Below, piece after piece: positions 4,176 through 16,239 of a stretch of 64,000 nt of DNA (position 1 is the first letter of the stretch; every line of letters starts with the position of its first letter). Origin of the DNA: an uncultured Acidobacteriota bacterium (GTDB lineage Bacteria; Acidobacteriota; UBA6911); the NCBI GenBank assembly GCA_963843575.1, contig CAWJKZ010000025.1, forward strand, positions 192,001 to 256,000. Direction: 5' to 3'. The notes beneath the pieces were generated by a model. That model was not told where the DNA came from, searched no databases, and worked only from the letters and a program-made list of their open reading frames with translations. The position numbers and the translations under genes are program-made.

Positions 4176-5108
4176 CTACCCTGCGGTCGTCGCCCATTTC
4201 TCCAGGAGTGCCCGGGTCACGCCGGCGCCGCCGCAGACGATCACCAGGACGGGTCCGACACCGCGCAGCGCGGGAGCTTGCTCGTAGGCTGCGGCAAGCG
4301 AGGCGCCGCAGGCCGGTTCGACCAGGACCCGGTGATCATCGGCAAAGCGCAGGCACGCCTCGACGGCAGACCGGTCGCTCACCACCCAAGGAACGATTTC
4401 CCGCCGGCCGGCCCAGGCAAGCGCCGCAGGCGCAACAGTCCGGGCTCCTAGGGTCGTCGCCAGCGACGTGATGGCCTCCAGCGTGACCAGCCGGCCCGCG
4501 GCGACCGATGCCGCGAATGAGTCGGCCCCGCGGGTTTCCACGGCGAGTATCGGCACATCGCCCCATCCCACGTCGCTCATTCCCTGCGCGACGCCGCAGA
4601 GAAGCCCTCCACCTCCTACCGAAACCACGACCGCGCCGGGCTTGATCCCGCTTTCGGCTGCCTCGTGCAGCATGGTGGCATGCCCGGCCCACGCCCTCGG
4701 ATCGTCGAAGGGATGGATATAAGCCGCCCCGGGCCCATCAGCCAGCCGGACGGCGTACATGTGGGAGTCGTCCCACGCCTCCCCGAACTCGGTCACCTCG
4801 GCACCTTCCCCGAGTATGAGGTCGCGGGAGCGGTTCGAGGTGCGGCTCGGAACGACAATCGTGACCGGCACGCCGAGCCGCCGCCCAGCGTAGGCCACCG
4901 CGTAACCGGCGTTTCCTCCGGAGGAGGAGACGAGACGCCCGGCCCCCTGTTCGACGGCGTCCTGGCAGGCAGCCCCCATACCCCGTAGCTTGAACGACCC
5001 GACGGGTTGAAGCGCTTCCATTTTCAGGAAAACCGGTGCTCGCAGGAGCTGGCCCATCGGGCGCGAGTCCCACAACGGCGTGCGGTGGTGCAAAGCAGTG
5101 AGGGTCAT
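4176..5108 (-). CDS. PLP-dependent L-serine/L-threonine ammonia-lyase (fold type II)
   Basis: LKMEALQPVGSFKLRG PLP-lysine motif, SSGGNAG, IHPFDDP, SVGGGGL, LVEPACGA. Confidence 0.9.
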   Translation of the reverse strand: MTLTALHHRTPLWDSRPMGQLLRAPVFLKMEALQPVGSFKLRGMGAACQDAVEQGAGRLVSSSGGNAGYAVAYAGRRLGVPVTIVVPSRTSNRSRDLILGEGAEVTEFGEAWDDSHMYAVRLADGPGAAYIHPFDDPRAWAGHATMLHEAAESGIKPGAVVVSVGGGGLLCGVAQGMSDVGWGDVPILAVETRGADSFAASVAAGRLVTLEAITSLATTLGARTVAPAALAWAGRREIVPWVVSDRSAVEACLRFADDHRVLVEPACGASLAAAYEQAPALRGVGPVLVIVCGGAGVTRALLEKWATTAG

Positions 5109-5165
5109 GTACTCCCCCGGCAGAAAAGGTCAAGCTTGTGAAACAGGAAACACCCTGTCATCGTA

Positions 5166-5900
5166 TTGGTTTACTTCATGTCCTGCAACGTGCAGGTAGC
5201 AACTATGTATAAGCTGATAAACCTGATCGTCCTCCTCGTCCTCTGCGCCCCGCCGCTTGCCGAAGCGAGCGCCGAAGACCTGAAACACGCGCAGGAAGAA
5301 CTGATTCGGAAGACGGCGGCCTACGGCGACGAACTGGTCAAGCTGCTGTCCATCGAGGAGGCTGCGCGCGAGGCCGTCGAGCGGGGCCTCCCAAAGCGCC
5401 GCGAGCTTTATGCCGGCGGTCTGATATCGAGACAGGAGCTGGAGCAGAGTGAGGCCAGGCTGCACGAAGCCGATGCCCGCTTGCGGGAACTGAGGCGGCA
5501 AATTACTGAATCAGCGGACCTTGTTGCAGAAGTACGGCTGGCTCTCGAGACGCCGTCCACCGAAGGGCAGGATGCCACGGTTATTCGCTTCGAAGGGCAG
5601 GCGCCCTGGAAGCCGGACGCGCTTTCGACGATCGAGAGCTTCTACGTCCGCCGTTTCGGCGAAGACCTGCCGGTCAGCGCCGTCGGCCAGACGGCCCTGC
5701 ACAACAGGTTCGGTCTGCTGCACACCACCGCAGTCGATATCGCGCTGCACCCGGACAGCCCCCAGGGGCTGGCACTGCTGGAGTTCCTGCGAAAATCGGG
5801 GACGCCCTTTATCGCCTTCCGGACGTCGGTCCCTGGATCCGCCACCGGAGCCCACATCCACATTGGACCACCCTCGCAGCGCATCCACATGGCGCTCTGA
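5166..5900 (+). CDS. Secreted hypothetical protein: coiled-coil N-terminal part, C-terminal H..D..HxH domain
   Basis: Signal peptide (probable start near 5205), helical repeat region, LHTTAVDIALHPDS...ATGAHIHIGPPS. Confidence 0.7.
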   Translation: MVYFMSCNVQVATMYKLINLIVLLVLCAPPLAEASAEDLKHAQEELIRKTAAYGDELVKLLSIEEAAREAVERGLPKRRELYAGGLISRQELEQSEARLHEADARLRELRRQITESADLVAEVRLALETPSTEGQDATVIRFEGQAPWKPDALSTIESFYVRRFGEDLPVSAVGQTALHNRFGLLHTTAVDIALHPDSPQGLALLEFLRKSGTPFIAFRTSVPGSATGAHIHIGPPSQRIHMAL

Positions 5901-5980
5901 CAGAAAGTGAGCATCGCCCGGCCAAGGCCCAGGTAGGGCAGGTCAACCGCGAGACGGGCTGCAGCGGGACGCGCTGGGGG

Positions 5981-7033
5981 CTATTTCTTGTCTTTCTTGG
6001 CGGTGTAGCCCTTCTTGGTCCGCGCCACGAGACCCGGCTTCTTCAACTTGACTTCGACTTTGCGGAACTTGCCGTCGTGTTTGGGGTTGCTCGAGTAGTA
6101 GCCGATGCTGTACTGGCTGGCCAGTTCCTTGGCGACCTCCTCGAATGCGTAGTCAAGGTCCTGGTTTCCGTCAAAGACCAGGCCTCCGCTGAACTCCGAC
6201 AATTTCAGCAGATAGCTGTGACCGGCCATGTAATCGCCGGTTCTTCCCCCGGGGTAGCCGCCCGGATAGCCGCCAATCCTCGGCCGTGAACCGATGACCG
6301 GGGGCAGGCCTCCGCCGGGGTACGGGTAACCACCGACGGTGGGGCCGAGGCCGCCGGTACGGTATTGGTCCGCCTCCGTGTTGTAGTAGACACTATAGAC
6401 GGTCGCGTAAGTCTCTTTGGCCAGGTCGAGTGTCTCGCCCATCGACGCCTTGCGGCTGCACGTGTCCACCCCGTCGGTGAAAAGCACCAGCGCCTTGCGC
6501 TGTTGGACCGGCTTGAGCACCTCGTCGAGGGCGAGCCAGACGGCTTCGTACTCGACCGTGCATCCGCCCGAGCGGGTCTTTTTGATCCCGTACTCGTTCT
6601 TGTTCCGGTCCATGGTGAAGTCTTCCTGGAGTTTGGTGTCCTCGGCAAACGACAGCACGGCCACCTCGTCGTCGGGGTGGAGCTTGTTGACAAATTCGAT
6701 GGCCGCGTTCTGGATGTTGGCCAGCTGCAGTTCGGTGCTGCCGCTGGTGTCGAGCGCCAGGGCGACCGAAACCGGCTCGTCGGTAGCCGCGAAGCCGGCG
6801 ATGGTCTGCTCGACGCCGTCTTCGAATACCCGGAAGTCGTCTTTGGCGAGGTCGATGACGCGCTTTCCCGCCTGCGTCGTGACAACCACCGGGAGAGACA
6901 CCATCTCGACGTTGACGCGGATCGCCTGATCGTCGGCAGCCGGTTTTTTCTGGGCCCGGGTCTGCTGAGGCCCCGCGCAGAGCAGCGCGGCGAGAACTGC
7001 ACCTGCACACATCCTGATCGTGTTGTCTGACAT
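5981..7033 (-). CDS. VWA domain protein (VWFA-related acidobacterial type)
   Basis: IRVNVEMVSLPVVVT, DFRVFEDGVEQ, MIDAS DTSGS, FTDGVD, QYSIGYYSSNPKHDGKFRKVEVK. Confidence 0.9.
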   Translation of the reverse strand: MSDNTIRMCAGAVLAALLCAGPQQTRAQKKPAADDQAIRVNVEMVSLPVVVTTQAGKRVIDLAKDDFRVFEDGVEQTIAGFAATDEPVSVALALDTSGSTELQLANIQNAAIEFVNKLHPDDEVAVLSFAEDTKLQEDFTMDRNKNEYGIKKTRSGGCTVEYEAVWLALDEVLKPVQQRKALVLFTDGVDTCSRKASMGETLDLAKETYATVYSVYYNTEADQYRTGGLGPTVGGYPYPGGGLPPVIGSRPRIGGYPGGYPGGRTGDYMAGHSYLLKLSEFSGGLVFDGNQDLDYAFEEVAKELASQYSIGYYSSNPKHDGKFRKVEVKLKKPGLVARTKKGYTAKKDKK

Positions 7034-7149
7034 GGCTGCGCCTCGCCTCCGGTTAATAGATGCGATCCACGCCCGGAACGGGTCACTCGTTTCCTCAGTT
7101 TAACAGAACCACCGAGTGCAACTGTCCGGGATAGGCCAGATAAAAAGAC

Positions 7150-7194
7150 GTCCGGGCTGAAGCCCGGACCCACTTGGCTGAAGCCCGGACCCAC
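7150..7194. repeat. REP family A (GTCCGGGC-TGAA-GCCCGGAC-CCAC), one full copy plus a partial copy
   Basis: Perfect 8-bp stem palindrome followed by CCAC (GTGG on the other strand). Confidence 0.85.
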
Positions 7195-7263
7195 AATCCG
7201 GAGATTTTTTCGCTCAAAAGCAGCGGGCGGGGTTGAACAGGCGACAGGGGGCATCGACGCGCC

Positions 7264-8799
7264 ATGCTCTTCCGGGTTCAATCCGCTGCGGTCTTCGGCA
7301 TCAAAGCCTACCTGGTCGCGGTCGAGGTCGACCTGGCCGCGGGCAAGAAGATGAACTTCATGACCGTTGGCCTGCCCGACACGGCGGTGCGGGAGAGCAG
7401 TGAGCGGGTGAGGGCGGCGCTGCGCAACTGCGGCTATCAGCTGCCGCCGCAGCGTATTACCATCAACCTGGCTCCTGCCGACGTGCGCAAGGAAGGATCG
7501 GCCTTCGACCTACCGATGGCAATCGGCATTCTCGGGGCAGCGGGCTCGGTACGTACGCAGAACCTGTCCGGCTATCTCTTCCTGGGAGAGCTGTCGCTCG
7601 ACGGCTCGATCCGGCCGGTGAAGGGAACCCTTTCGATGGCCGTCATGGCCCGGGAGAAGGGGCTCGGGCGGCTCGTGCTTCCCGAGGCCAACGCCGGCGA
7701 GGGCGCCGTGGTTGACGGCGTCCACGCCTTTCCCGTACGCACTCTCCCCCAGGTGGTCGAGCTGCTCAACGGACGCGCCCCCTGGATTCCGCTGGTCGTG
7801 GATCGGCGGCAACTGCTGGAGCAGAACGGGGTCTACGAGGTGGACTTCCGGGACGTGCGGGGACAGTACCAGGCCAAGCGCGCGCTCGAGGTCGCAACGG
7901 CCGGCGGGCACAACATCATCCTCATCGGGCCGCCCGGCTCCGGCAAAACGATGCTCGCGCGGCGGCTGCCGACCATTTTGCCCGCCATGACCTTCGAGGA
8001 GGCGATCGAGACGACCAAGATCCACTCGGTCGCGGGCCTGCTTTCGGAAAAGAACGGTCTGGTCGCGATTCGCCCGTTTCGCGCGCCGCACCACACGATC
8101 TCCGACGGCGGGCTGATCGGCGGCGGCAGCACGCCGAGGCCGGGCGAGGTCAGCCTGGCGCACAACGGGGTGCTGTTTCTCGACGAATTCCCCGAGTTCC
8201 AGCGACACGTGCTCGACGTCTTGCGCCAGCCGCTCGAGGACGGCGACGTGACGATCAGCCGGGCGTCGATGTCGCTGACCTTTCCGGCGCGCTTCATGCT
8301 GGCCGCCGCAATGAACCCCTGCCAGTGCGGCTGGTCGGGCGATCCCGAAACACGAATGCACCTGCACGGTGCCGCTCATCCAGCGCTACCTCGCCCGCAT
8401 CTCCGGGCCGCTGCTCGACCGCATCGACCTGCACATCCGGGTGCCGGCCGTGAAATACAAGGAGCTCGCGCAGGACGAGACAGCCGAAGCCTCGGCGGCG
8501 ATCCGCGAGCGCATCGTCGCGGCCGGCAGATCCAGTTCCGCCGCCTGGAGGCCTTCGGTTTGTTCTGCAACGCACAGATGACGCCGCGCACGCTGCGCCG
8601 CTTCTGCAAGCTCGACTCGGAGTCCGAGAAGCAGATGGAAAACGCCATCACGCGGCTCGGGCTGTCGGCGCGCGCCTACGACCGGATCCTCCGCGTCTCG
8701 CGGACGATCGCCGACCTGGCCGGCGAGGAGAAGATCCAGGCGCGGCACGTCTCCGAAGCCATCCAGTACCGCACCCTCGACCGCACCTACTGGCAGTGA
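7264..8799 (+). CDS. comM: YifB/ComM family Mg-chelatase-like AAA+ ATPase (compensating frameshifts at ~8350-8530)
   Basis: VGLPDTAVRES, INLAPAD.RKEGSAFDLP, GPPGSGKT, RPFRAPHHTIS, PGEVSLAHNGVLFLDE; the RYLARISGPLLDRIDL segment is in another frame (8369-8581). Confidence 0.93.
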   Translation: MLFRVQSAAVFGIKAYLVAVEVDLAAGKKMNFMTVGLPDTAVRESSERVRAALRNCGYQLPPQRITINLAPADVRKEGSAFDLPMAIGILGAAGSVRTQNLSGYLFLGELSLDGSIRPVKGTLSMAVMAREKGLGRLVLPEANAGEGAVVDGVHAFPVRTLPQVVELLNGRAPWIPLVVDRRQLLEQNGVYEVDFRDVRGQYQAKRALEVATAGGHNIILIGPPGSGKTMLARRLPTILPAMTFEEAIETTKIHSVAGLLSEKNGLVAIRPFRAPHHTISDGGLIGGGSTPRPGEVSLAHNGVLFLDEFPEFQRHVLDVLRQPLEDGDVTISRASMSLTFPARFMLAAAMNPCQCGWSGDPETRMHLHGAAHPALPRPHLRAAARPHRPAHPGAGREIQGARAGRDSRSLGGDPRAHRRGRQIQFRRLEAFGLFCNAQMTPRTLRRFCKLDSESEKQMENAITRLGLSARAYDRILRVSRTIADLAGEEKIQARHVSEAIQYRTLDRTYWQ

Positions 8800-8841
8800 G
8801 GAACCGAATCGACTCCGGGTTCAGTCGTCGTGAGGGGAGTC

Positions 8842-8970
8842 GTGGCGAGGACGATTCTTCTTGTCGAAGATCACGAAGGGGTGGCCAGGGTCACAAGAAA
8901 TGATCTGATTCTGACGGATATCGGGCGAGGGGTCCGATGGACGGCATCGAAGCCGCGCACCTGCTGGCAG
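8842..8970 (+). pseudogene. Degenerate response-regulator receiver-domain remnant
   Basis: GTG start after GAGGGG; reads ARTILLVEDHEGVAR..DLILTDIG, then PMDGIEAAHLL in a shifted frame; internally deleted. Confidence 0.5.
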
Positions 8971-9246
8971 TGACGCCGCAGAGAGAACGGCGTCGCATCA
9001 CGGGTTTCCGCGGATTCTCACGAATCGGGTCCATGCCCGACTGGGCGGCTGGTGTCGCCTGCACGGAGGAGTGCACCGCTCTGCCGATCCGTGCCGGTCC
9101 TTCCTGGTTTTTCCCTTGACTCGCCGTGTATTTGGATATAGGTAAGAGACAAGAGAAATGAATGTCGACTACTACCGCGACTAGCACCAACGGCTAAAAT
9201 GCTCTGAGCACGGCAACTCGACGTTGTTTTTTCCTGGTGCGCGCAG

Positions 9247-9705
9247 ATGGAGACGCAGTGCGTGACAGTTTTCGATCGCATCCAGCGATTGCGCCCGGGA
9301 GACATCCCATCCCTTCTGCGAATCACGACCATTCTGTTGGCGCTGCCCTTCCTCTTGCGACGACTGCCGTTGAACAGGCTTTTGCACCTTCTTGATGCTA
9401 AACCGCTCCAAGCAGCCGATTCTCACTTATCTGTCGAACGGCACATCTCCCTGGCTCGCGGGCTACTCCACTTAAACATCGGACCGTTTCGACCCAACTG
9501 CCTGACGCAATCGCTTATATTGTTCCACCTCCTGCGTCGGTTGGGTCTTCCTGTACGCATTCATTTCGGGTTGGCAAGGCGGCAAACCAGACTCCAGGGA
9601 CACTGCTGGTTGGAATCCGATGGAAAACTCATCGCCGAAAAGGCGGATCCGGCGCGCTTCTACCGGAGTGTATACACGTTTCCGGATCGTTCTCTGGTGC
9701 AATAG
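9247..9705 (+). CDS. Lasso-peptide-type B2 leader peptidase (transglutaminase-like cysteine protease)
   Basis: PNCLTQSL (catalytic Cys), LRRLGLPVRIHFG, GHCWLESDG (His/Glu region) as in Transglut_core3/B2 proteins. Confidence 0.88.
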   Translation: METQCVTVFDRIQRLRPGDIPSLLRITTILLALPFLLRRLPLNRLLHLLDAKPLQAADSHLSVERHISLARGLLHLNIGPFRPNCLTQSLILFHLLRRLGLPVRIHFGLARRQTRLQGHCWLESDGKLIAEKADPARFYRSVYTFPDRSLVQ

Positions 9706-9734
9706 ATCCGGTGCAATAGAAAGGAACACCCGTG

Positions 9735-9908
9735 ATGGCCGAATCAAACACCCCACATGACAGCGACCTTGCCCGCAATCTCGCAAGAGAGCGACAGGAT
9801 GCAGCTCCACGGAAATCGGACAGGAAGTCGTTTGTGAAACCTGAATTGACGAAACACGAATCTCTCCCTGAGGTGACCACGGCATTCTTCGCGACCTTCC
9901 AACCTTGA
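9735..9908 (+). CDS. Putative RiPP precursor peptide, 57 aa (not in ORF track)
   Basis: AAGGAA RBS at 9721-9726; MAESNTPHDSDLARNLARERQDAAPRKSDRKSFVKPELTKHESLPEVTT|AFFATFQP*; F/P/L/T at -17/-14/-12/-2; stop overlaps the next start. Confidence 0.85.
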   Translation: MAESNTPHDSDLARNLARERQDAAPRKSDRKSFVKPELTKHESLPEVTTAFFATFQP

Positions 9909-10957
9909 GAGACTGCAAGGTGCCCGGAACGTCGATTCCGAACCGGCGAGTTGTGTCCCGTATTCCGCTCCCTTTGCCTTCGCACTCCGCGGGAAAGGAC
10001 TACCTGCTTCACGGCCTCTTGGTGCGTGTCGATTGCGACAACAAGCGCCTTGAACTGCAGGTCCATTCTACCCTCGAGCAGTTTGGGCTGGTGCCGTCCG
10101 ACCAATATGGAATGGTGCCTGACGTGTCCCTGACGCTCCGCACTGCGGCTGGCCGATTATGCGTTCCTGGCAAGAGTCGCCTTTTGGCCGAGCAGCATGG
10201 CATACGAATTTCGAGTGCCCGGAACGATGTCTATCTCGAGGATGGCGACAATGTCGCTCGCCTGAGTCCGCATTCGGCAAGCGGTATCGCCACGATTCGT
10301 GCGGGAGCGCCGAGAACGCGGGCGCTGCGGGGAGACCTGCTTCTCCACTGCCTCCTTCTTTTGCTGAGGTATCGGGATCTCTTTACGGTGCACGCTGCAT
10401 GTGTGGCCCGAGACGGAGCGGGATGCATGTTGGTGGCCGAGGGAGGTTGCGGCAAATCCACCCTCATGTTCGCCCTTGTCCGGCACGGCTGGAACTACCT
10501 CTCCGATGACGTCAACCTCCTTTGTCCGCGGGGTTGCGACGTGCAGGCTCTGCCGCTCAGGAGAGATCTGTCGCTGCACATCACGGCTGCTCGCAGATAC
10601 CCCGAAATAAACGATTGTCGCGACTCCATTTCCATGACTCCGGATTCGAAGCTTCGTCTGAATCTGCTAACGCTCTATCCCAACCAACTCGCTGCCGCTT
10701 GTCTTCCGCAACTACTGCTTTTCCCTCGGATCCTACGCGGGCCGACCAGTCGACTTGAACCGATGCCCAAGCCTGAGGCCTTGTGGCATCTGATCAAGCA
10801 GAGCGCTTTGCTTTTTGTGGAACCCACTATGGCGCCCAGACATGTCGATCTTCTCAGGCGGCTGGTAGGCCAATGCAAAAACTATTCCCTCGCAGCGGGG
10901 ACGGATCTCGAGAAAGACCCAGGCGCGATCTCCGGTTTGGTGGACGGCATCACCTAG
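9905..10957 (+). CDS. HPr kinase-related P-loop kinase (RiPP tailoring type)
   Basis: VHAACVARDGAGCMLVAEGGCGKSTL...GWNYLSDD: catalytic His, Walker A and DD motifs of the HprK C-terminal family. Confidence 0.85.
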   Translation: MRDCKVPGTSIPNRRVVSRIPLPLPSHSAGKDYLLHGLLVRVDCDNKRLELQVHSTLEQFGLVPSDQYGMVPDVSLTLRTAAGRLCVPGKSRLLAEQHGIRISSARNDVYLEDGDNVARLSPHSASGIATIRAGAPRTRALRGDLLLHCLLLLLRYRDLFTVHAACVARDGAGCMLVAEGGCGKSTLMFALVRHGWNYLSDDVNLLCPRGCDVQALPLRRDLSLHITAARRYPEINDCRDSISMTPDSKLRLNLLTLYPNQLAAACLPQLLLFPRILRGPTSRLEPMPKPEALWHLIKQSALLFVEPTMAPRHVDLLRRLVGQCKNYSLAAGTDLEKDPGAISGLVDGIT

Positions 10958-10971
10958 AGAATTCTCGAAGC

Positions 10972-11982
10972 ATGACAGCAAAGCCGGGTATGAGATTAAA
11001 CTTCGAGCTAACCAATCTCTGCAATCTGCGGTGCATACATTGTCTTAGAGAAAGAGGGGCCCCTGGCGAGTACCTCTCTGTCTGCCTGGTCGAAAAGGTC
11101 CTTGCCGAGATGCAGTCGTACAGCAGTTTCGAGTTGGTCAGCTTTGGAGGAGGCGAGCCGACCCTGCATCCCGGGCTCGATACGATCATAGGACTCGTGA
11201 CCCGCCATGGGTATCGGTTCGCTTTTGTGACCAACGGCTGGCAATTTCAAGAGACATTCCGGATTCTGAGACCCTATCTCGGATTCCTGGAGGGAATCTC
11301 GTTCAGCCTCGACGGCGCCAACGAGGCCAGTCACGATGCCCTGCGGCTTCGGCCCGGCTCCTTTCGCCAGGTGATTCAGGCCATTGTTTTGTCTCGTTCA
11401 CAAAAAATCGCCTCTCACATAAACATGGTCGTCACCAAAGCAAATCGCACAGAGCTGGAAGACATGGCCTCACTGGCAAGCCATCTGGGTTGTTGCATCC
11501 TGGATTTCGCGCACTGCCAGCCGACGCCGGATGCCGTCGCCGCCGGGTTGGTCCTGAACTCCGAAGAGCGTCAGCAGGTGGAAGCAGATATTGCCGAGTT
11601 GCAGCGGATCTACAGGATGAAAATCCGCCTTGCGGGAGATCATCATAGCCCTTTGCGGTTCTATCAATGCCCGCAGTTGCGCATGGAGGAACTCAATGTC
11701 GACTACCGCGGCCGGCTGACCTTGTGCTGCATGCTCTCCAACTACCGGGGAGGCACTCCCGATACGGACGTGATCGCCGATCTGAACGAGGTGTCCCTCG
11801 CAAAAGCACACCTGCGCCTCATTTCCACGATTGCGGAGCTCCAACGCGAAAAGGTCACACTTCTGAACCGAAAGCCGGCAACGAAAGAGGATTCCTTCAT
11901 TTGCACGCACTGCCTCATTCACTTCAAAAAGGTGCCCGATATCCGGCGGATCCTGGAGCCGTCCCGAGGTGTGGGCACTTAG
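10972..11982 (+). CDS. Radical SAM enzyme with C-terminal Twitch/SPASM-like cysteines
   Basis: ELTNLCNLRCIHC (CxxxCxxC), GGGEPTLHP, VTNG, SLDG..HD; C-terminal QCP..NVDYRGRLTLCC..CTHC. Confidence 0.92.
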   Translation: MTAKPGMRLNFELTNLCNLRCIHCLRERGAPGEYLSVCLVEKVLAEMQSYSSFELVSFGGGEPTLHPGLDTIIGLVTRHGYRFAFVTNGWQFQETFRILRPYLGFLEGISFSLDGANEASHDALRLRPGSFRQVIQAIVLSRSQKIASHINMVVTKANRTELEDMASLASHLGCCILDFAHCQPTPDAVAAGLVLNSEERQQVEADIAELQRIYRMKIRLAGDHHSPLRFYQCPQLRMEELNVDYRGRLTLCCMLSNYRGGTPDTDVIADLNEVSLAKAHLRLISTIAELQREKVTLLNRKPATKEDSFICTHCLIHFKKVPDIRRILEPSRGVGT

Positions 11983-11996
11983 TCTCTGGAGGTCTT

Positions 11997-12284
11997 ATGT
12001 CGGCTTCCGAGCAGCAATTCCGCTGCCATCCAAGCGTCGTCTTCACCCGTCTGAGCGAAAACGAGGCGGTCCTGCTGCATCTGGACACGAAAAGGTACTA
12101 CTCCCTTAATGAAACCGGGGCGCGCCTTTGGGAACTCCTCCAGGATGGAAGGGTCCCGGATACTCTCTGCGAAAAAATCCTCGAGGAATATGACATCGAC
12201 GACAACAAGGCCCGCGGCTTCATCCGGGAGTTTCTGGATGAGTTGCGCAGGGAAGGCCTTGTGGAATCCGGTGGTGGCCACTGA
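11997..12284 (+). CDS. PqqD-family RiPP recognition element (RRE, B1-like)
   Basis: GGAGG RBS; EAVLLHLDTKRYYSLNETGARLWELLQ...EEYDID...FLDELRREGLV. Confidence 0.92.
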   Translation: MSASEQQFRCHPSVVFTRLSENEAVLLHLDTKRYYSLNETGARLWELLQDGRVPDTLCEKILEEYDIDDNKARGFIREFLDELRREGLVESGGGH

Positions 12285-12290
12285 GGAATT

Positions 12291-13670
12291 ATGGTTCCTG
12301 CCAGGAGCAGTCTGCCCGTGAATAAGAAAACGGCCGATTCGAATTCGGCTTCGGGAGTTCCGTCTCCAGATGCATCGCTGCCTCGACTGAAAACCGGGCG
12401 ACTCTGCCCCGCCGATCAAATGCATGTGATTGAGATGCCTGCCGATTTCTTACGCAGCCCGGTGCTCCCGGAAACAAAACTGCTGCTAGAATGTGCCTCC
12501 CTCGAAATAGCGGACGAAAGGGCACGGCGAATACGGAGCATCGTCGGCGGGAACCTGGATTGGACGGCTCTTATCGAGCGAGCACTCCGGCATGGCGTCA
12601 TGCCGCTCCTGTATCGCAACCTTCTGCTCGTTTGTCCGGATGCTGTTCCCGCGTCACACCTCGAACATCTTCGGGATGTGTTTTCACGTCAATTCGCGGC
12701 GCTGCCTGCTTTTCGCGGGGCGGCTGGTCGAGATCCTGCGACTGTTGGAGGCCAACAATATAACTGCAATACCGTACAAGGGCCCCGTGCTGGCCGCATC
12801 AGTGTATGACAACCTTGTACTTCGGCAGGCCGGCGACCTGGATATCCTGGTGCATTCTCGCGATGTGTCCAAAGCCAAAGCGTTGATCTCGTCCCTGGGA
12901 TTTTTCGGATCGGGACCGAATGACCTCGGACGTTGAGGCGATTCGTGCCCGATCGGACTATGAGTTCCGGCTGGTCAGCAAAGCGGACGACCTTTACGTC
13001 GGTCTTCACTGGAACGTCTGGCCGGCGTCTCAGCATTTCCCACTGGAGAGCCTGCACTTGTGGGAACGTGTTGTGCCTTTTCGGTTCGCGGGAGCGTTGG
13101 TCCCATGCCTCAGACGAGAGGACCTGCTCATTCTACTCTGTGCGCACGGAGTGAAGGACGTCTGGCCGAGGCTCATCTCCGTCTGCGATATTGCGGAGTT
13201 GATCCGGACATCCGAGCACCTGGACTGGAATTGCACTCTCCACCAAGCGGAGAGGCTTGGGCTCAGGCGGGTTCTTCTGCTTGGGCTGCATCTCGCTCAC
13301 GCGCTCCTGCAAACGTCTCTGCCCCAATCGATCTCTAGCGGGATCGAAAAGGACGATGCGCTTGCATCACTGGTCGAAGAAGGCACATCAGCGCCTGCTT
13401 TCAGGACCGCGAGCCCCGGAGCCCCTCGAAGGTTCCCTCTACTATCTGAGGTCACGTGAGCGGTTGCGAGACAGACTCAGGGGCTGTGCCGGTATAGTAC
13501 ACCAGTACAATTGGATGACTCCCCGGATTGTGGATCGGACGGTCCTGCCGCTGCCCGCCTCACTTGAGTTCATCTACACCCTGCTCTGGCCCATGCGCCT
13601 GGCAGGGAGATATATCCTCCGTCCAGTGAGACGTGCAATCAGGACTCTCAGGCAAGGCATCGGGTGGTAG
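12291..13670 (+). CDS. Nucleotidyltransferase family protein (NTP_transf_5), frameshifted in this assembly
   Basis: Consecutive frames give LDWTALIERALRHGVMPLLY / IPYKGPVLAASVYDNLVLRQAGDLDILVH / VGLHW..EDLLILLCAHG..W.RL..VCDIAELI / RERLRDRLR..LYTLLWPMRL. Confidence 0.82.
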
Positions 13671-13751
13671 GGGCACACGCACAGTGATGTGGGTTTCCAC
13701 TGCCTGTAACTGCTGCAATGCCCGTTTTCTTGGGCCAGGGACAAGAGTTGG

Positions 13752-16239
13752 TCAGTTACCTCCTGCACTTACGGTCCCCCAGATATCCACAGAGAAGCTG
13801 AACCGGTTCCGGTTAGCCAGGCCGATCCTGAATCGGACGGTGGCTGATTCATTCGGCAGAAGCGTGTCGTCAGTTCCGGCATCAATCGCCTGCTTGCTAC
13901 CCACCGCTCCGTTGCCTTCGTGAGCGCTGAGAAGTTTGTTCCCGTTGGTCAGCGTCGCCACAACCGCCTTGATCGGTTCCCAGATATTCTGCTGGCTCTT
14001 GTTGGTTAAACGGGCAGTGATCGTATAGACACCAGCAGGACCGCCGTAAACAGGAGTGGTACTCAAGGAGGAGCTTTGGACCACGAAGTTCACCTTGTCA
14101 TTGATGAGCTGCAGTTGCGGCAAACCGGACAGATTCGTGTCTAGTTTGACAATAAAGCCCTCATTCTGTTCCCTGGTGCTATCTGCCGACCCTGCCCCTG
14201 CCAATCTGGGAATGTCAGGGCCTGTAAAACCTGCCAAATAGAGGTCCCCAACACTATCAAGAGCCACAGCACTGACGTATATACCTTGTCCCAGCAGCAA
14301 TGCTGATGCGAGGTTAACGCTAAGATCTGAATTCAGCTTCGCCACACAGACTCCGTCATTTGTGGTACCACCCACGTAAACACCCGTGCTTCCAATGGCA
14401 AGAGACTCATCAGTACAGCCACGAGTCCCCCCCGAAAAACTGGCAGCCACAATTGAACTCAGATCTGAACTCAACTTTGCCACAAAGCCTCCGAAGTCTG
14501 CAGCAACAGTGCTCTCGGCGGAGCCGGGACCTACGCCTGGAAAATCCGATGATCCCGTGCGACCGGATACATAGACAATTCCTGCGTCATCTAGGGCGAG
14601 GGCATATATCTGATCGATGTTGCCACTTCCACCAAGAAACGTAGCTGCCAGAATGGAACTCAGAACCGAATTCAGCTTCACCACAAACCCTTCGGAACCA
14701 GATGCGGTGCTATCGGCGGACCCTGAACTTATACCTGGAAAGTCGCCTGAGACTGTGGTACCAGCCGCATAGACTGATCCACTGCCATCTAAGGCGAGGG
14801 CTGTAACGGTCTCGAAATACCGTCCTCCTAGGAAAGTTGCCGCCACAATGGAACTCAAATCCGAATTCAGCTTGGCCACGAAGCTCTCCCCTCCACTATC
14901 ATAAGGTTCGGGGACTCAAAAGTGCGATCGGCCGAGCCTAGACCTATTCCAGGAAAATCGGCTGATCCTGTAGAACCGCCCACATAGACATTCCCTGTAC
15001 TGTCAAGGGCGAGGGCCTCAGGCGCATCTACACCACTTCCTCCAAGGAAGGTAGCTGCCAGGATTGAGCTCAGCTCTGAGTTCAGCTTTGCAACAAAACC
15101 TTCTGATCTATACGTTTTGGGTAGCCGGTATGTTTAGCAAGTATGCGATCGGCTGAACTTGGACCAATGCCTGGAAAATCCGCTGAGGAAGTAGTACCGA
15201 CTGCGTAGACATTCCCAGCACCATCAAGCGCGAGGGCATTCAATGATTCATAATTGCTTCCCCCAATGTAGGTAGCAGCCAAAATGGTGCTTAGATCTGA
15301 ATTCAGCTTCGCGACAAAACCATCTCCTCCAGCAAGTGTGAGATCTGCCGACTCCGAATCTATACCGGGAAAATTGGGGGAGCCTGTGTCACCTGCCACA
15401 TAGACATTCCCCATGTTGTCCAAGACAAGGGCATGAAGTTCATCATTATTAATTCCCCCCAGGTAGGTCGCCGCTAGTATCGGGTCGATGACAAGCTCCC
15501 GGGTCTGGTCGTACTCCCCGACCTTAAAGCTGTATCCATTGCCTCGTAGCTGATAGGCAACTTCGACTGGCTCTCTCTTTCCTCCCTGCTCCTGAGACGC
15601 TAACGGCTTTGAGAACCTCACCGTCCCTTGGTCTGTCTCTACCTCCAGTTCTCCGCTCTCGTTGACCTTAATTCCCTTCCCCCCGCTGAGCTTCATCTGG
15701 ATCGTCTCTGGCTCGGCCCCCGGCTTTACATAAAACAGCTTCTCCACATTGTTCCCATAGGCTTTGAATTTGACGTCGATCCCTTGATAGACTTCTCCCA
15801 GACTCACCCGGTCGTAGCTGGGCAGGTTGCTCTGCCATTTCGATCGGTCATTCCCCCTGAAATAGCTCACCCGGGTCGCTGTCCGGCTTTCGCCTTTAAC
15901 CTCCCTCACCTTCGCGCCGATGAGCTCCTCTCTCAGCACCACCCCCTTCGCTGGTTTCTCTCCCTCCAGCTTTGGAAGGGAGTACACCAGTTCGCCTTTC
16001 TTTGTAACCGAGACTGTTCCGGCAAACGTCCGGGCGGTGAACTTCACCTCTTTACTGCTCTGGCCCCGATTGGGGATAAAGGGAATCTGGACCTTGGCCA
16101 GCTTCTGTTTCGCCTCAGCTCCCACGGCATTCGAAGAGCTATTCGAGCTAGCCTCTGCCAGTTGCGCTATCCCCAGCGCCAGCGACAACCAGACCATGAT
16201 CTGCACCGAAAAAGTGGTGTGACAATTCCAGGTTTTCAT
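13752..16239 (-). CDS. Secreted SBBP-repeat (beta-propeller) surface protein, frameshifted near 14880-15110
   Basis: Signal peptide; FIPNRGQ..VSYFRGND.SKW..LGEVYQGID..LVIDP N-terminal domain; many ATYLGG..D....LALD..GNVYVAG.T.S..FPG..GFVAKLNSDLS repeats. Confidence 0.85.

Follow-up and report, generated by a model that had tools for sequence, protein, structure and literature searches.

Results

Genes at the locus

The window, by which we mean the whole 64,000-nucleotide stretch of DNA analysed here, contains a co-directional row of genes for a B2 peptidase, a short peptide, an HprK-like kinase, a radical SAM enzyme (rSAM) and a PqqD-type RRE (B1), followed by a broken NTP_transf_5 gene (Table 1). 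Scans with Pfam and NCBIfam models agree with the first-pass annotation, which had placed B1 (RRE), B2, kinase and rSAM genes around the peptide.

Table 1. Features of the gene row, in window coordinates
Feature	Position	Strand	Evidence or remark
Lasso-type B2 leader peptidase (transglutaminase-like Cys protease), 152 aa	9247..9705	+	NF033537
Probable precursor (A) gene, 57 codons	9735-9908	+	translation MAESNTPHDSDLARNLARERQDAAPRKSDRKSFVKPELTKHESLPEVTTAFFATFQP*
Leader, residues 1-49	9735..9881	+	FVKPEL...T48-T49 motif fills the last 17 residues
Predicted core AFFATFQP (9882-9905) and TGA stop (9906-9908)	9882..9908	+	translation
HprK-like P-loop kinase, 350 aa, start uncertain (TTG 9905 or GTG 9920)	9905..10957	+	
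Radical-SAM enzyme, 336 aa	about 10972..11982	+	PF04055 3e-19, 70 bits
Discrete PqqD-type RRE (B1), 95 aa	about 11997..12284	+	PF05402 1.5e-19, 70.5 bits
NTP_transf_5 nucleotidyltransferase-like gene, in pieces on three frames	12468..13628	+	tblastn, PF14907

The B2 protein matched NF033537 (lasso_biosyn_B2) at 2.1e-17 and 63.7 bits, against a cut-off of 33, and PF13471 at 1.2e-15; a search of solved structures by sequence returned no match to it. Its orthologues at loci L028, L029 and L040 are 37-41% identical, and the motifs PNCLxQSL, GHCW and DG are common to the three correctly framed B2 sequences of the alignment, the fourth row (L029) having been cut in the wrong frame. In the kinase translation a Walker A motif, GGCGKST, can be read. 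HprK-type models matched this protein only below their cut-offs, namely TIGR04352 (HprK_rel_A) at 5.1e-17 and 61.9 bits against 200, and PF07475 at 19.3 bits against 33.3.

The rSAM translation contains CNLRCIHC (CX3CX2C), carries no RRE domain of its own and has a Cys-rich C-terminal part; all 35 homologues in the alignment keep Cys233, 252, 253, 311 and 314. Its best NCBIfam matches all lie far under the cut-offs. The nearest solved structure is SkfB (1e-9 with the single sequence, 1.3e-22 with a profile), the match being limited to the rSAM core. Relatives at E<=1e-30 number 1406, and the look-alikes found in the Atlas are mostly Acidobacteriota. B1 scored 53.4 and 49.7 bits on the lasso PqqD models NF033530 and NF033536, under their cut-offs of 70 and 80. 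When a profile of five B1 orthologues was compared with solved structures, only four chains were retrieved: TbiB1 (6.5e-18), TfuB1 (5.5e-10), 9x90, whose title is lasso PqqD-family chaperone, and 9x8z, titled PqqD-family protein.

The NTP_transf_5 gene was traced by tblastn with the intact proteins of G008 and L029, which aligned to pieces at 12468-12686 (frame 1), 12607-12903 (frame 2), 12956-13450 (frame 3) and 13443-13628 (frame 1); PF14907 matches the piece 12920-13459 at 8.8e-25. These frameshifts may be real decay or an assembly error. A DUF7948/SBBP gene nearby also looks frameshifted in this assembly. No GNAT gene was found in this window. Since NTP_transf_5 is broken and GNAT is absent, the local cluster may have undergone some decay, or its product may be simpler.

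The peptide gene

The frame hidden at 9735-9908 translates exactly as first written down. F33, P36, L38 and T48 fall at -17, -14, -12 and -2 from A50, as had been claimed from the comparison with lasso leaders, and the tail AFFATFQP has three Phe, one Thr and no Asp, Glu or Cys. The proposed ribosome-binding site can be assigned to AGGA at 9722-9725, which is 9 nt upstream of ATG 9735 and 6 nt upstream of an alternative start, GTG 9732. The peptide stop had also been described as overlapping the kinase start; this holds if the kinase begins at TTG 9905 and fails if it begins at GTG 9920, and because the latter is also a possible start, the statement is only conditionally true. A scan for promoters and terminators gave nothing above the expectation from shuffled sequence.

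The possibility of an indel that would lengthen the core, raised in the first-pass annotation, was examined with two contigs assembled from RNA libraries, which span the whole frame without gaps. The X1 contig covers 9701-10060 with 0 differences to the window. The X3 contig covers 9716-10003 and has a single T>C change at 9828, giving S32P, and no gaps. Both runs come from a single study, and over all runs the coverage of the window amounts to 9701-10344. Such contigs do not prove transcription, because libraries of this kind can contain DNA. The short core is not an artefact.

Conservation of the peptide

A phmmer search of 1.84 billion proteins with the single peptide gave seven proteins at E<=1e-3, six of them peptides of 40-61 aa with leader and tail as in the window peptide; the seventh, an 844-aa repetitive protein, was discarded as unrelated. 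A profile built from 13 such peptides found 86 relatives at E<=0.01, and the family counts given here refer to these plus the window peptide (n=87). The names on the homologues include Nitrospira, Longimicrobium and Calditrichia. F/Y(-17), P(-14), L/I(-12) and T(-2) are kept in all 87 peptides, the register itself having been used to place the motif in each of them, and the leaders also share H(-9) (83/87), L(-6) (85/87), P(-5) (80/87) and V(-3) (83/87).

The 87 peptides have 51 distinct cores, 3 to 16 residues in size, nearly all of which match one 8-residue pattern, with the consensus G/A-F-F/V-G-T/S-F-x-P. One subfamily, SYVGT[F/W]DP..., has long tails. The standard core, a pattern defined after the sequences had been seen, reads [G/A/S][F/Y]x[G/A][T/S][F/Y/W]xP and occurs in 76/87 peptides, 50 of which end directly after the Pro. 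Among the standard cores an aromatic residue occupies position 2 in 75/76 and position 6 in 74/76, and position 5 is Thr or Ser in all 76 (the class definition permitted T, S and G; G is absent). Cys occurs in none of the 87 cores; Asp or Glu occurs in six and is absent from 81. Ten 'VTG-type' peptides can have Gly or Gln at position 5, with Thr/Ser at position 7, and in five 'VTG-type' peptides the tail is only FSF or FTF. In the P0008 cluster of eight near-identical members the N-terminus and leader vary and the core is identical. One member of this cluster is named as Nitrospira sp.

Pfam and NCBIfam hold no family model for these peptides: Pfam gave one chance-level match, and one of 13 aligned members matched the NCBIfam models lasso_cyano (6.8e-5) and lasso_leader_L3 (1.6e-4). 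A word-indexed search with the single peptide as query returned no matches; a search with a 4-sequence alignment returned three genome loci and one metagenome locus, whose peptide is identical to that of L027. With the peptide profile, the 401 genomes of the window's phylum gave a match at E<1e-5 in the window's own genome only; five further matches in the same 401 genomes (about 0.005-0.009) cover the leader alone, and one of these, L032, proved on inspection to be an ordinary lasso-type precursor. The peptide was found in 3/86 Calditrichota genomes. Conservation rules out a chance ORF: the 57-codon frame is a real, conserved gene under selection.

Recurrence of the gene set

Seven genomes carrying the peptide were compared (G000, the window's own, and G008, G425, G426, G427, G490 and G491). 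They had been found via the peptide or the kinase, so that the co-occurrence counts are not those of an unbiased sample. An rSAM orthologue (38-54% identity; in G425 at the end of a neighbouring contig), B1 and the kinase (in G426 on another contig) are present in all seven, the kinases of the six other genomes being 30-34% identical to that of the window. B2 occurs in 5/7 genomes and is not obligatory, since two Calditrichota genomes carry a papain-family peptidase instead.

A wider association of peptide and rSAM is indicated by two indirect lines. In 16/86 peptide matches the longest contig has exactly the same size as that of one of the 120 rSAM matches listed (for example 111074, 167789, 504808 and 134921); 42 of the peptide matches have a longest contig of 2.5 kb or more, and all 16 belong to these. 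Moreover, two of the 120 listed rSAM homologues are fusions with a PqqD domain.

No PF00733 lasso cyclase (asparagine-synthetase homologue) was found at the locus in any of the six genomes tested, the window cluster included. In the window's own genome, 88% complete, the sole PF00733 match is a 27-bit partial one on another contig. A weak asparagine-synthase-like match 8 kb from the G490 peptide was recognised as an NAD synthase and not a cyclase.

Discussion

Relation to lasso peptide clusters

The leader follows the lasso form, Y/W/FxxPx[L/V/I] with Thr(-2), and the locus encodes both a B1 RRE, scoring under the cut-offs of the lasso-specific models, and a B2 Cys peptidase. The PF00733 cyclase is missing, and AFFATFQP is not a threadable core with Asp/Glu at positions 7-9. 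As the first-pass annotation had already judged from the core, it cannot form a lasso, because it has 8 residues, none of them acidic, and a cyclase is neither present at the locus nor recognisable in the 88%-complete genome.

Among the closest known systems are the paeninodin and pseudomycoidin clusters with split B1 and B2, which share with the window a discrete PqqD RRE, a transglutaminase-like B2, an HprK-like kinase and NTP_transf_5, as well as the Y/FxxPxL leader, Thr(-2) and a core that begins with a small residue (G/A/S). In the pseudomycoidin pathway, according to a review, PsmK places a phosphate on the C-terminal Ser, and hexoses are attached to that phosphate by PsmN (PMC9266682). 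The window cluster differs from both in lacking the cyclase and the C-terminal Ser, in its 8-residue core and in having instead a constant rSAM. We consider it probable that the ORF at 9735-9908 is the precursor gene of an apparently undescribed, cyclase-less offshoot of the kinase-type lasso clusters.

Comparison with other rSAM and PqqD systems

Short conserved C-terminal motifs, a PqqD-type chaperone, an rSAM with an auxiliary-cluster domain and a subsequent peptidase are also combined in the PQQ and mycofactocin pathways (PqqA/D/E; MftA/B/C), and among the weak matches of our rSAM those to PqqE and the mycofactocin maturase rank fairly high. However, this enzyme scored only 71.7 bits on TIGR03962 (MftC), against a cut-off of 265, and 43.3 on TIGR02109 (PqqE), against 381; the core motifs of these systems (E-x3-Y; C-terminal GVY) are absent, and the locus has a leader, an RRE and a peptidase of lasso type. 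Matches to the thioether maturases SkfB, AlbA and StsB are confined to the rSAM core (roughly residues 1-180), and a sactipeptide or ranthipeptide is ruled out, since a thioether is impossible when no core of the family (n=87) contains Cys. StsC, a discrete sactipeptide RRE, has been grouped with lasso and PQQ RREs that bind a W/Y/LxxP/L/I motif (PMC12710340).

Our rSAM has CX3CX2C. Its C-terminal pattern, C-x13-G-x4-CC ... CxxC, falls short of the seven-Cys SPASM motif, and PF13186 is unmatched. In triceptides an aromatic-x-x motif is cross-linked by an rSAM with a fused RRE. The FSF/FTF mini-cores and F-x-P fit aromatic-x-x. The most conserved pair here (2, 6) has i, i+4 spacing, and our rSAM lacks a fused RRE. 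HprK-like, PqqD-like and rSAM/SPASM proteins are combined in the bioinformatically defined SynChlorMet and 'HprK-related kinase A' cassettes (TIGR04249-04251, TIGR04352/04353). The window proteins matched ScmC, ScmD, ScmE/F, HprK_rel_A and PqqD_rel_X weakly, far under the cut-offs (for example 61.9 versus 200 and 67.5 versus 400), and TIGR04353 gave 27.2 bits against 35, which leaves the locus outside HprK-related kinase A systems as modelled. Neither system is known to have a B2 peptidase, and our literature search found no paper on these cassettes.

Proposed pathway

Taking the gene set together, we infer every biochemical step of the following pathway. B1 would bind the FxxPxL stretch of the leader, by homology to lasso RREs with solved leader complexes, and would present AFFATFQP to the rSAM, which would occupy the place of the lasso cyclase. 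That the rSAM acts on the peptide is suggested by its constant co-occurrence and by the rSAM-PqqD fusions; its substrate might be another molecule. By analogy with PadeK, PsmK and LppK, the HprK-like kinase would phosphorylate a core hydroxyl, for which Thr5 would be the sole candidate in AFFATFQP. The NTP_transf_5 protein, where intact, would decorate the phosphate, and GNAT may acetylate the new N-terminus. Finally, the B2 cysteine peptidase would cut after T48-T49, a site predicted from the lasso T(-2) rule, and release a modified octapeptide. The 'VTG-type' peptides with Gly or Gln at position 5 speak against a universal kinase site.

Regarding the chemistry, the first-pass annotation had suggested aromatic cross-linking or epimerisation by the rSAM, with Thr5 supplying the hydroxyl for the kinase, which is consistent with conservation in the family. 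Our own tentative choice, possible though short of probable, is an intramolecular cross-link through the aromatic residues 2 and 6, perhaps with participation of Thr/Ser5; we give less weight to epimerisation or to an ether formed through Thr5.

Alternative explanations

It might be argued that this is a decayed lasso cluster that has lost its cyclase, and whose precursor was cut short by a nonsense mutation, a frameshift or faulty assembly. The frameshifted appearance of NTP_transf_5 and of the DUF7948/SBBP gene nearby would agree with this, as would L021 and L032, true lasso precursors from related genomes whose leaders are similar and whose cores have Asp or Glu at position 8. However, the relatives with the standard core come from many sources, and 50 of the 76 end directly behind the same Pro; the 8-residue core is itself conserved; independent contigs carry no indel; and six further genomes hold the cyclase-less set as well, two of them apparently near-complete with megabase contigs. 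This explanation is already contradicted and we give it almost no credence. The peptide could also be only phosphorylated or decorated and then cut, yielding a linear product, with the rSAM serving another purpose or substrate. LPP systems offer a precedent: they form a cyclase-less offshoot of the paeninodin type that makes linear phosphopeptides, in which an RRE reads a YxxP-type leader, a core Ser is the target of an HprK-like kinase, and an NTP transferase completes the set. Their precursors are 35-200 aa long, with variable C-termini and the motif YxxPxVLxHQxIxFETxxS, and the clusters are mostly from Bacillota (Popov et al., Nat Commun 2026, PMC13381572). The kinase, present in 7/7 genomes, fits such a scheme; the window also has an NTP transferase gene, though a broken one. 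Nevertheless, the rSAM is equally constant (7/7) and adjoins the peptide or the RRE, and 2/120 listed homologues are PqqD fusions, whereas LPP systems as described there have no rSAM; moreover, the invariant aromatic residues would have no role in phosphorylation. LPP cores are proteins of 35-200 aa with variable C-termini, and these systems use an SpI-type (SipW-like) peptidase and an MsbA-like exporter; Pfam scans of the submitted ORFs of the window cluster and five related loci found no signal peptidase and no ABC exporter. We regard the linear product as quite improbable.

Another possibility concerns the role of the product and is compatible with the precursor ORF: in place of a secreted, antibiotic-like natural product, it might be a small and conserved molecule that serves as cofactor, metal binder or signal and is made in the manner of PQQ or mycofactocin. 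The core is unusually constant over distant lineages, no transporter gene was seen in the annotated loci, and among solved structures PqqE (1e-19) ranks with the best matches to the rSAM profile. The conserved aromatic residues are spaced i, i+4, as are the Glu and Tyr of PqqA. On the other hand, no conserved partner oxidoreductase was seen, and the kinase, nucleotidyltransferase, GNAT and glycosyltransferase genes are accessory genes of tailored lasso or LPP products. Because the distribution is sparse (the own genome only among 401; 3/86 Calditrichota), an accessory trait fits better than a core cofactor, and we consider this role unlikely.

Implications

In the full-text articles searched we found no B1/B2 plus rSAM pathway without a cyclase; the supplementary lists of RRE-Finder and of Popov et al. 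might include such clusters. No paper contained the core strings, the four matches to one of them being 'GFF/GTF' file names. RRE-Finder reported about 300 lasso-type RREs co-occurring with rSAM proteins and treated them as false positives (PMC7470986). The present peptide family may account for a large share of these.

Returning to the cyclase-less offshoot of the lasso clusters that we prefer, a bolder and rather doubtful extension is that a novel rSAM cross-link in a core of 3-8 residues, either a Phe2-Phe6 (i, i+4) C-C bridge or a Thr/Ser-to-Phe bond, defines a new RiPP class that arose from a lasso pathway by exchange of the cyclase for an rSAM. The product, constant in at least four bacterial lineages, would then have a conserved target, serving as cofactor, signal or metal binder and not as an arms-race antibiotic, and in some lineages its partners may be the secreted beta-propeller or Ig-like proteins of adjacent genes.

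The family is large (public data contain 86 of the peptides and over 1400 rSAM relatives), and it occurs in environmentally important uncultured groups; with a candidate substrate in hand, the reaction of the rSAM is open to direct test. RiPP classes are defined by their class-making enzyme. In this family the module that handles lasso leaders (leader motif, B1, mostly B2, and the kinase) has been kept and the class-making enzyme appears to have been replaced by an rSAM, and such a swap of one module would illustrate clearly how new peptide pathways come about.

A short precursor gene with a conserved core

The first-pass annotation had proposed a hidden precursor with a lasso-type leader and an eight-residue, Phe-rich core, and translation of the ORF, which lies within a co-directional gene row, gave the identical 57-residue peptide. 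AGGA stands 9 nt upstream of the ATG, and a GTG three bases 5' of it is an alternative start. As claimed, F33, P36, L38 and T48 fall at -17, -14, -12 and -2 from A50, and the tail AFFATFQP has three Phe and one Thr, with no Asp, Glu or Cys. The proposed overlap of the stop codon with the kinase start holds for TTG 9905, the first possible start, which the TGA overlaps, and is lost with GTG 9920, which is equally possible.

Features of the precursor gene row in the window (HprK, HPr kinase type; RRE, RiPP recognition element)
Feature	Position	Strand	Remarks
Lasso B2 peptidase	9247-9705	+	Passes curated model NF033537 (63.7 bits, cut-off 33)
Precursor peptide A, 57 residues	9735-9908	+	From translation
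HprK-like P-loop protein	9905-10957	+	Walker A GGCGKST readable; HprK-type models below cut-offs
Radical-SAM enzyme (rSAM)	start probably 10972	+	CX3CX2C; without RRE domain of its own
PqqD-type RRE (B1), 95 aa	~11997-12284	+	
NTP_transf_5 gene	12468-13628	+	Traceable only across three reading frames

The same annotation had asked whether an indel hides a longer core. None was found, and gapless RNA-library contigs and many relatives speak against it. One such contig covers 9701-10060 with neither difference nor gap, and a second (run X3, 9716-10003) has no gap and a single T>C at 9828, that is, S32P at leader position -18; both runs come from one study, and the contigs represent the same sequence assembled independently, though they neither prove transcription nor can rank genes. 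The Pro in run X3 agrees with the family consensus K-P-F. Positions 10091-10344 are covered by a soil run whose type is uncertain (listed 'DNA?').

A phmmer search of 1.84 billion representatives with the peptide gave seven matches at E<=1e-3, six of them peptides of 40-61 aa with leader and tail as in the window peptide; the seventh, an 844-aa repetitive protein, was rejected as unrelated. A profile built from 13 peptides gave 86 matches, which with the window peptide form a set of 87. All 87 carry the register [F/Y]xxPx[L/I]-x9-T-x, by which the leader/core boundary was itself placed in each peptide. The leader has F 85 and Y 2 at -17, P 87 at -14, L 83 and I 4 at -12, H 83 at -9, L 85 at -6, P 80 at -5, V 83 at -3 and T 87 at -2.

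A standard core pattern, written after the sequences had been seen, fits 76 of the 87 cores: position 1 (G40, A30, S5, T1), 2 (F70, Y5, M1), 3 (F41, V24, others 11), 4 (G71, A5), 5 (T59, S17), 6 (F68, Y4, W2, V1, L1), 7 (variable) and 8 (P69). Fifty of these 76 stop directly after position 8 and the others have short extensions, e.g. RR, SNRPR, GNRPQ or EKEYPALP. Ten peptides with Gly at -1 have cores FFGGFTP, FFGQFSPG, FFGTF(N/S)P or bare FSF/FTF, and P0220 is the single outlier. Cys is found in none of the 87 cores and Asp/Glu in six. In one cluster of eight near-identical members, one of them named as Nitrospira sp., the core is identical and the N-terminus and leader vary. Conservation of this kind is the mark of selection on a gene whose last eight residues matter.

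In peptides P0214-P0219, ...EVTG is followed by nothing more than the mini-core FSF or FTF. A subfamily (P0005, P0143, P0145, P0150, P0153) has the core SYVGT[F/W]DP plus 5-8 extra residues (13-16 aa in total), with Asp7 and Glu/Lys further on; contigs of 4948446 and 685865 bases carry two of its peptides each, and neither size matches that of a contig of a listed rSAM homologue. The peptides of this subfamily might be true lasso substrates. Genomes from the class or phylum of the window genome also encode ordinary lasso-type precursors whose leaders are related, at L021 (G035:C45, ~2072, -) and L032 (G390:C84, 1450-1599, -); position 8 of their cores, AGINGVADGVLIGSTI and GGTGNANEGSSSQKPRP, is Asp or Glu.

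The gene set around the precursor

We compared seven genomes with the peptide. The rSAM, B1 and kinase genes are present in 7/7, B2 in 5/7, GNAT in 4/7 and NTP_transf_5 in 3/7, counts that are not an unbiased sample since the genomes were found via the peptide or the kinase. The precursor/rSAM system is not unique to the window.

Gene sets in the seven genomes (A, precursor; K, HprK-like kinase; NT, NTP_transf_5; GT1, glycosyltransferase)
Genome	Genes
G000 (window)	B2, A, K, rSAM, B1, NT (broken)
G008 (same taxonomic family)	B2 (two frames), A, K (one in-frame TGA), rSAM, B1, GNAT, NT
G427 (L029)	A, unknown 503-aa ORF, B2, K, rSAM, B1, GNAT, NT, GT1
G426 (L028, 3.5-kb contig)	B2, A, rSAM, B1, unknown ORF, GNAT; kinase orthologue on other contig
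G425 (Calditrichaceae)	First contig end: B2, K, rSAM; second contig end: B1, GNAT, with peptide 3.8 kb beyond on opposite strand
G490, G491 (Calditrichota, megabase contigs)	Papain-family peptidase, K, rSAM, A, T9SS-tailed FlgD_ig protein, B1

No B2, GNAT or NTP_transf_5 gene was found within 10 kb in G490 and G491. A Peptidase_C1 gene takes the place of B2 in G490, and by gene order in G491. A T9SS-tailed protein (FlgD_ig + Por_Secre_tail) lies directly 3' of the peptide gene in all three peptide-bearing Calditrichota genomes (L051 in G490, 6223-11356; L052 in G491; L027 in G425, 4741-6588). The G008 copy (L022, G008:C49; segments 1441-1715, 4776-4976, 5389-5776, 6171-7304) also looks damaged, in its B2 and kinase, and has two stray rSAM-like fragments upstream.

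An asparagine-synthetase-type cyclase (PF00733) is absent from the window cluster, and the whole genome (88% complete) has one 27-bit partial match, on another contig. None was found on the peptide's contig or region in the five other genomes tested, in which PF00733 genes do occur, as in most bacteria. A weak match 8 kb from the G490 peptide was rejected, being an NAD synthase.

The window copy may be incomplete, because its NTP_transf_5 gene is broken and GNAT is absent. That gene has at least three frame changes, in a region free of homopolymers of length 6 or longer; real decay or an assembly error may be the cause. GC content is 0.62-0.69 in the upstream genes (6000-9000) versus 0.55-0.58 across the cluster (8800-13800), a weak hint of foreign origin. 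Convergent to the cluster, 300 bp past its end, lies a gene for a secreted DUF7948 + SBBP beta-propeller protein (13752-16239, -; signal peptide MKTWNCHTTFSVQIMVWLSLALGIAQLAEA...), spread over three frames (ORFs 15082-16239 and 13752-14879, plus a piece between). It is one of only two DUF7948 copies in the genome; three of the 5-6 copies in G008 flank its cluster, both copies in G427 lie elsewhere, and G426 has none. A functional link, not chance, may explain this position. Elsewhere in the genome (L023, G000:C20, 6267-8446), a second HprK-like protein is adjacent to an intact NTP_transf_5 protein in a polysaccharide locus (PMT_2, Wzy_C, GT1, GDP-mannose dehydratase) in which no PqqD, B2 or rSAM gene was seen, which recalls the clusters for linear polyphosphorylated peptides (LPP) described as embedded in capsule loci (PMC13381572).

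The B1 profile matched only four solved chains: TbiB1 (6.5e-18), TfuB1 (5.5e-10), 9x90 (titled lasso PqqD-family chaperone) and 9x8z (PqqD-family). TbiB1 and TfuB1 are reported to have been solved together with their leaders.

The links of the peptide to the rSAM are indirect: contig-size matches, PqqD fusions and rSAM kinship. For 16 of the 86 peptide matches, or 16 of the 42 on contigs >=2.5 kb, the longest contig equals in size that of one of 120 listed rSAM homologues. Among them, P0214, with the mini-core FTF, has a 2578-bp contig, the size of that of rSAM homologue P0112 (48% identity). Of the 120 listed homologues, 2 have a fused PqqD domain, which speaks for an RRE in the service of the rSAM. 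The window rSAM has 52-54% identity to those of G426, G427, G425 and G490 versus 38% to that of same-family G008, and the peptide was found, at E<1e-5, only in its own genome among 401 of the phylum, and in 3/86 Calditrichota genomes. This kinship, together with the scarcity of the peptide across the phylum, suggests lateral spread.

Discussion

The analysis demonstrates a real, conserved precursor gene accompanied by B1, rSAM, kinase and, in most genomes, B2, with the cyclase absent; the interpretation in the first-pass annotation was essentially right. In the proposed pathway, B1 would bind FxxPxL of the leader, and the rSAM, without an RRE of its own, would modify the core of the B1-bound peptide. 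The kinase would phosphorylate a core hydroxyl; its analogues here are PadeK and PsmK, described as acting on a C-terminal Ser (PMC9266682), and LppK, described as acting on Ser3 (PMC13381572). Where intact, the NTP_transf_5 protein may decorate the phosphate; for pseudomycoidin, addition of hexoses by PsmN is described (PMC9266682). B2 would cleave after T(-2)-x(-1), leaving a Gly/Ala/Ser N-terminus, which GNAT, where present, may acetylate.

At a threshold of E<=1e-30, 1406 proteins belong to the rSAM family, named just 'radical SAM protein' or 'MoaA/NifB/PqqE/SkfB family'. Since the best curated models (AhbD, NirJ2, MftC, ScmF, AlbA, GeoRSP, StsB) reach 58-73 bits versus cut-offs of 265-850, and the best solved structures (SkfB, BlsE, PqqE, MoaA, viperin, YydG, anSME, CteB, SuiB) match mainly the N-terminal core, to about residue 180 (PqqE to 235), the chemistry is not readable from homology. 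Five C-terminal Cys, C233-x13-G-x4-C252-C253 ... C311-xx-C314, are invariant in 35/35 aligned homologues and would suffice for one auxiliary cluster; the SPASM motif has seven, more than are seen here.

The cores themselves, with strictly conserved aromatics at positions 2 and 6 and Thr/Ser at 5, and with G-F-S/T-F in the mini-cores, point to a reaction of two aromatic side chains, perhaps with the hydroxyl between them. In our judgement, which is not a result, a cross-link involving aromatic residues (C-C or C-O) is a tentative possibility, an ether joining Thr/Ser to a carbon of the backbone is unlikely, and epimerisation is somewhat more doubtful still, the rest falling to some other reaction. 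G008-type peptides have Gly or Gln at position 5 and a hydroxyl at position 7, so that the hydroxyl need not hold one fixed position.

Among characterised systems, kinase-type lasso clusters and the LPP family come closest. The latter is also a cyclase-less offshoot; however, it has a signal-peptidase-type leader peptidase, long variable cores and no rSAM. Because it has neither the cyclase nor the type of core that define lasso clusters, the window system is not filed among them: it resembles the lasso pathway in leader handling and RRE-dependent rSAM pathways in all later steps. RRE-Finder is described as treating ~300 lasso-type discrete RREs co-occurring with rSAM as false positives (PMC7470986), and a 2025 study as finding W/Y/LxxP/L/I recognition motifs common to lasso, PQQ and one sactipeptide RRE (PMC12710340). 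The full texts searched describe no pathway in which B1/B2 and an rSAM act on an octapeptide core free of Cys; known RiPP modules stand here in a combination, and with a substrate, not found in print. The value of the finding is that a large uncharacterised rSAM family now has an explicit substrate that can be tested.
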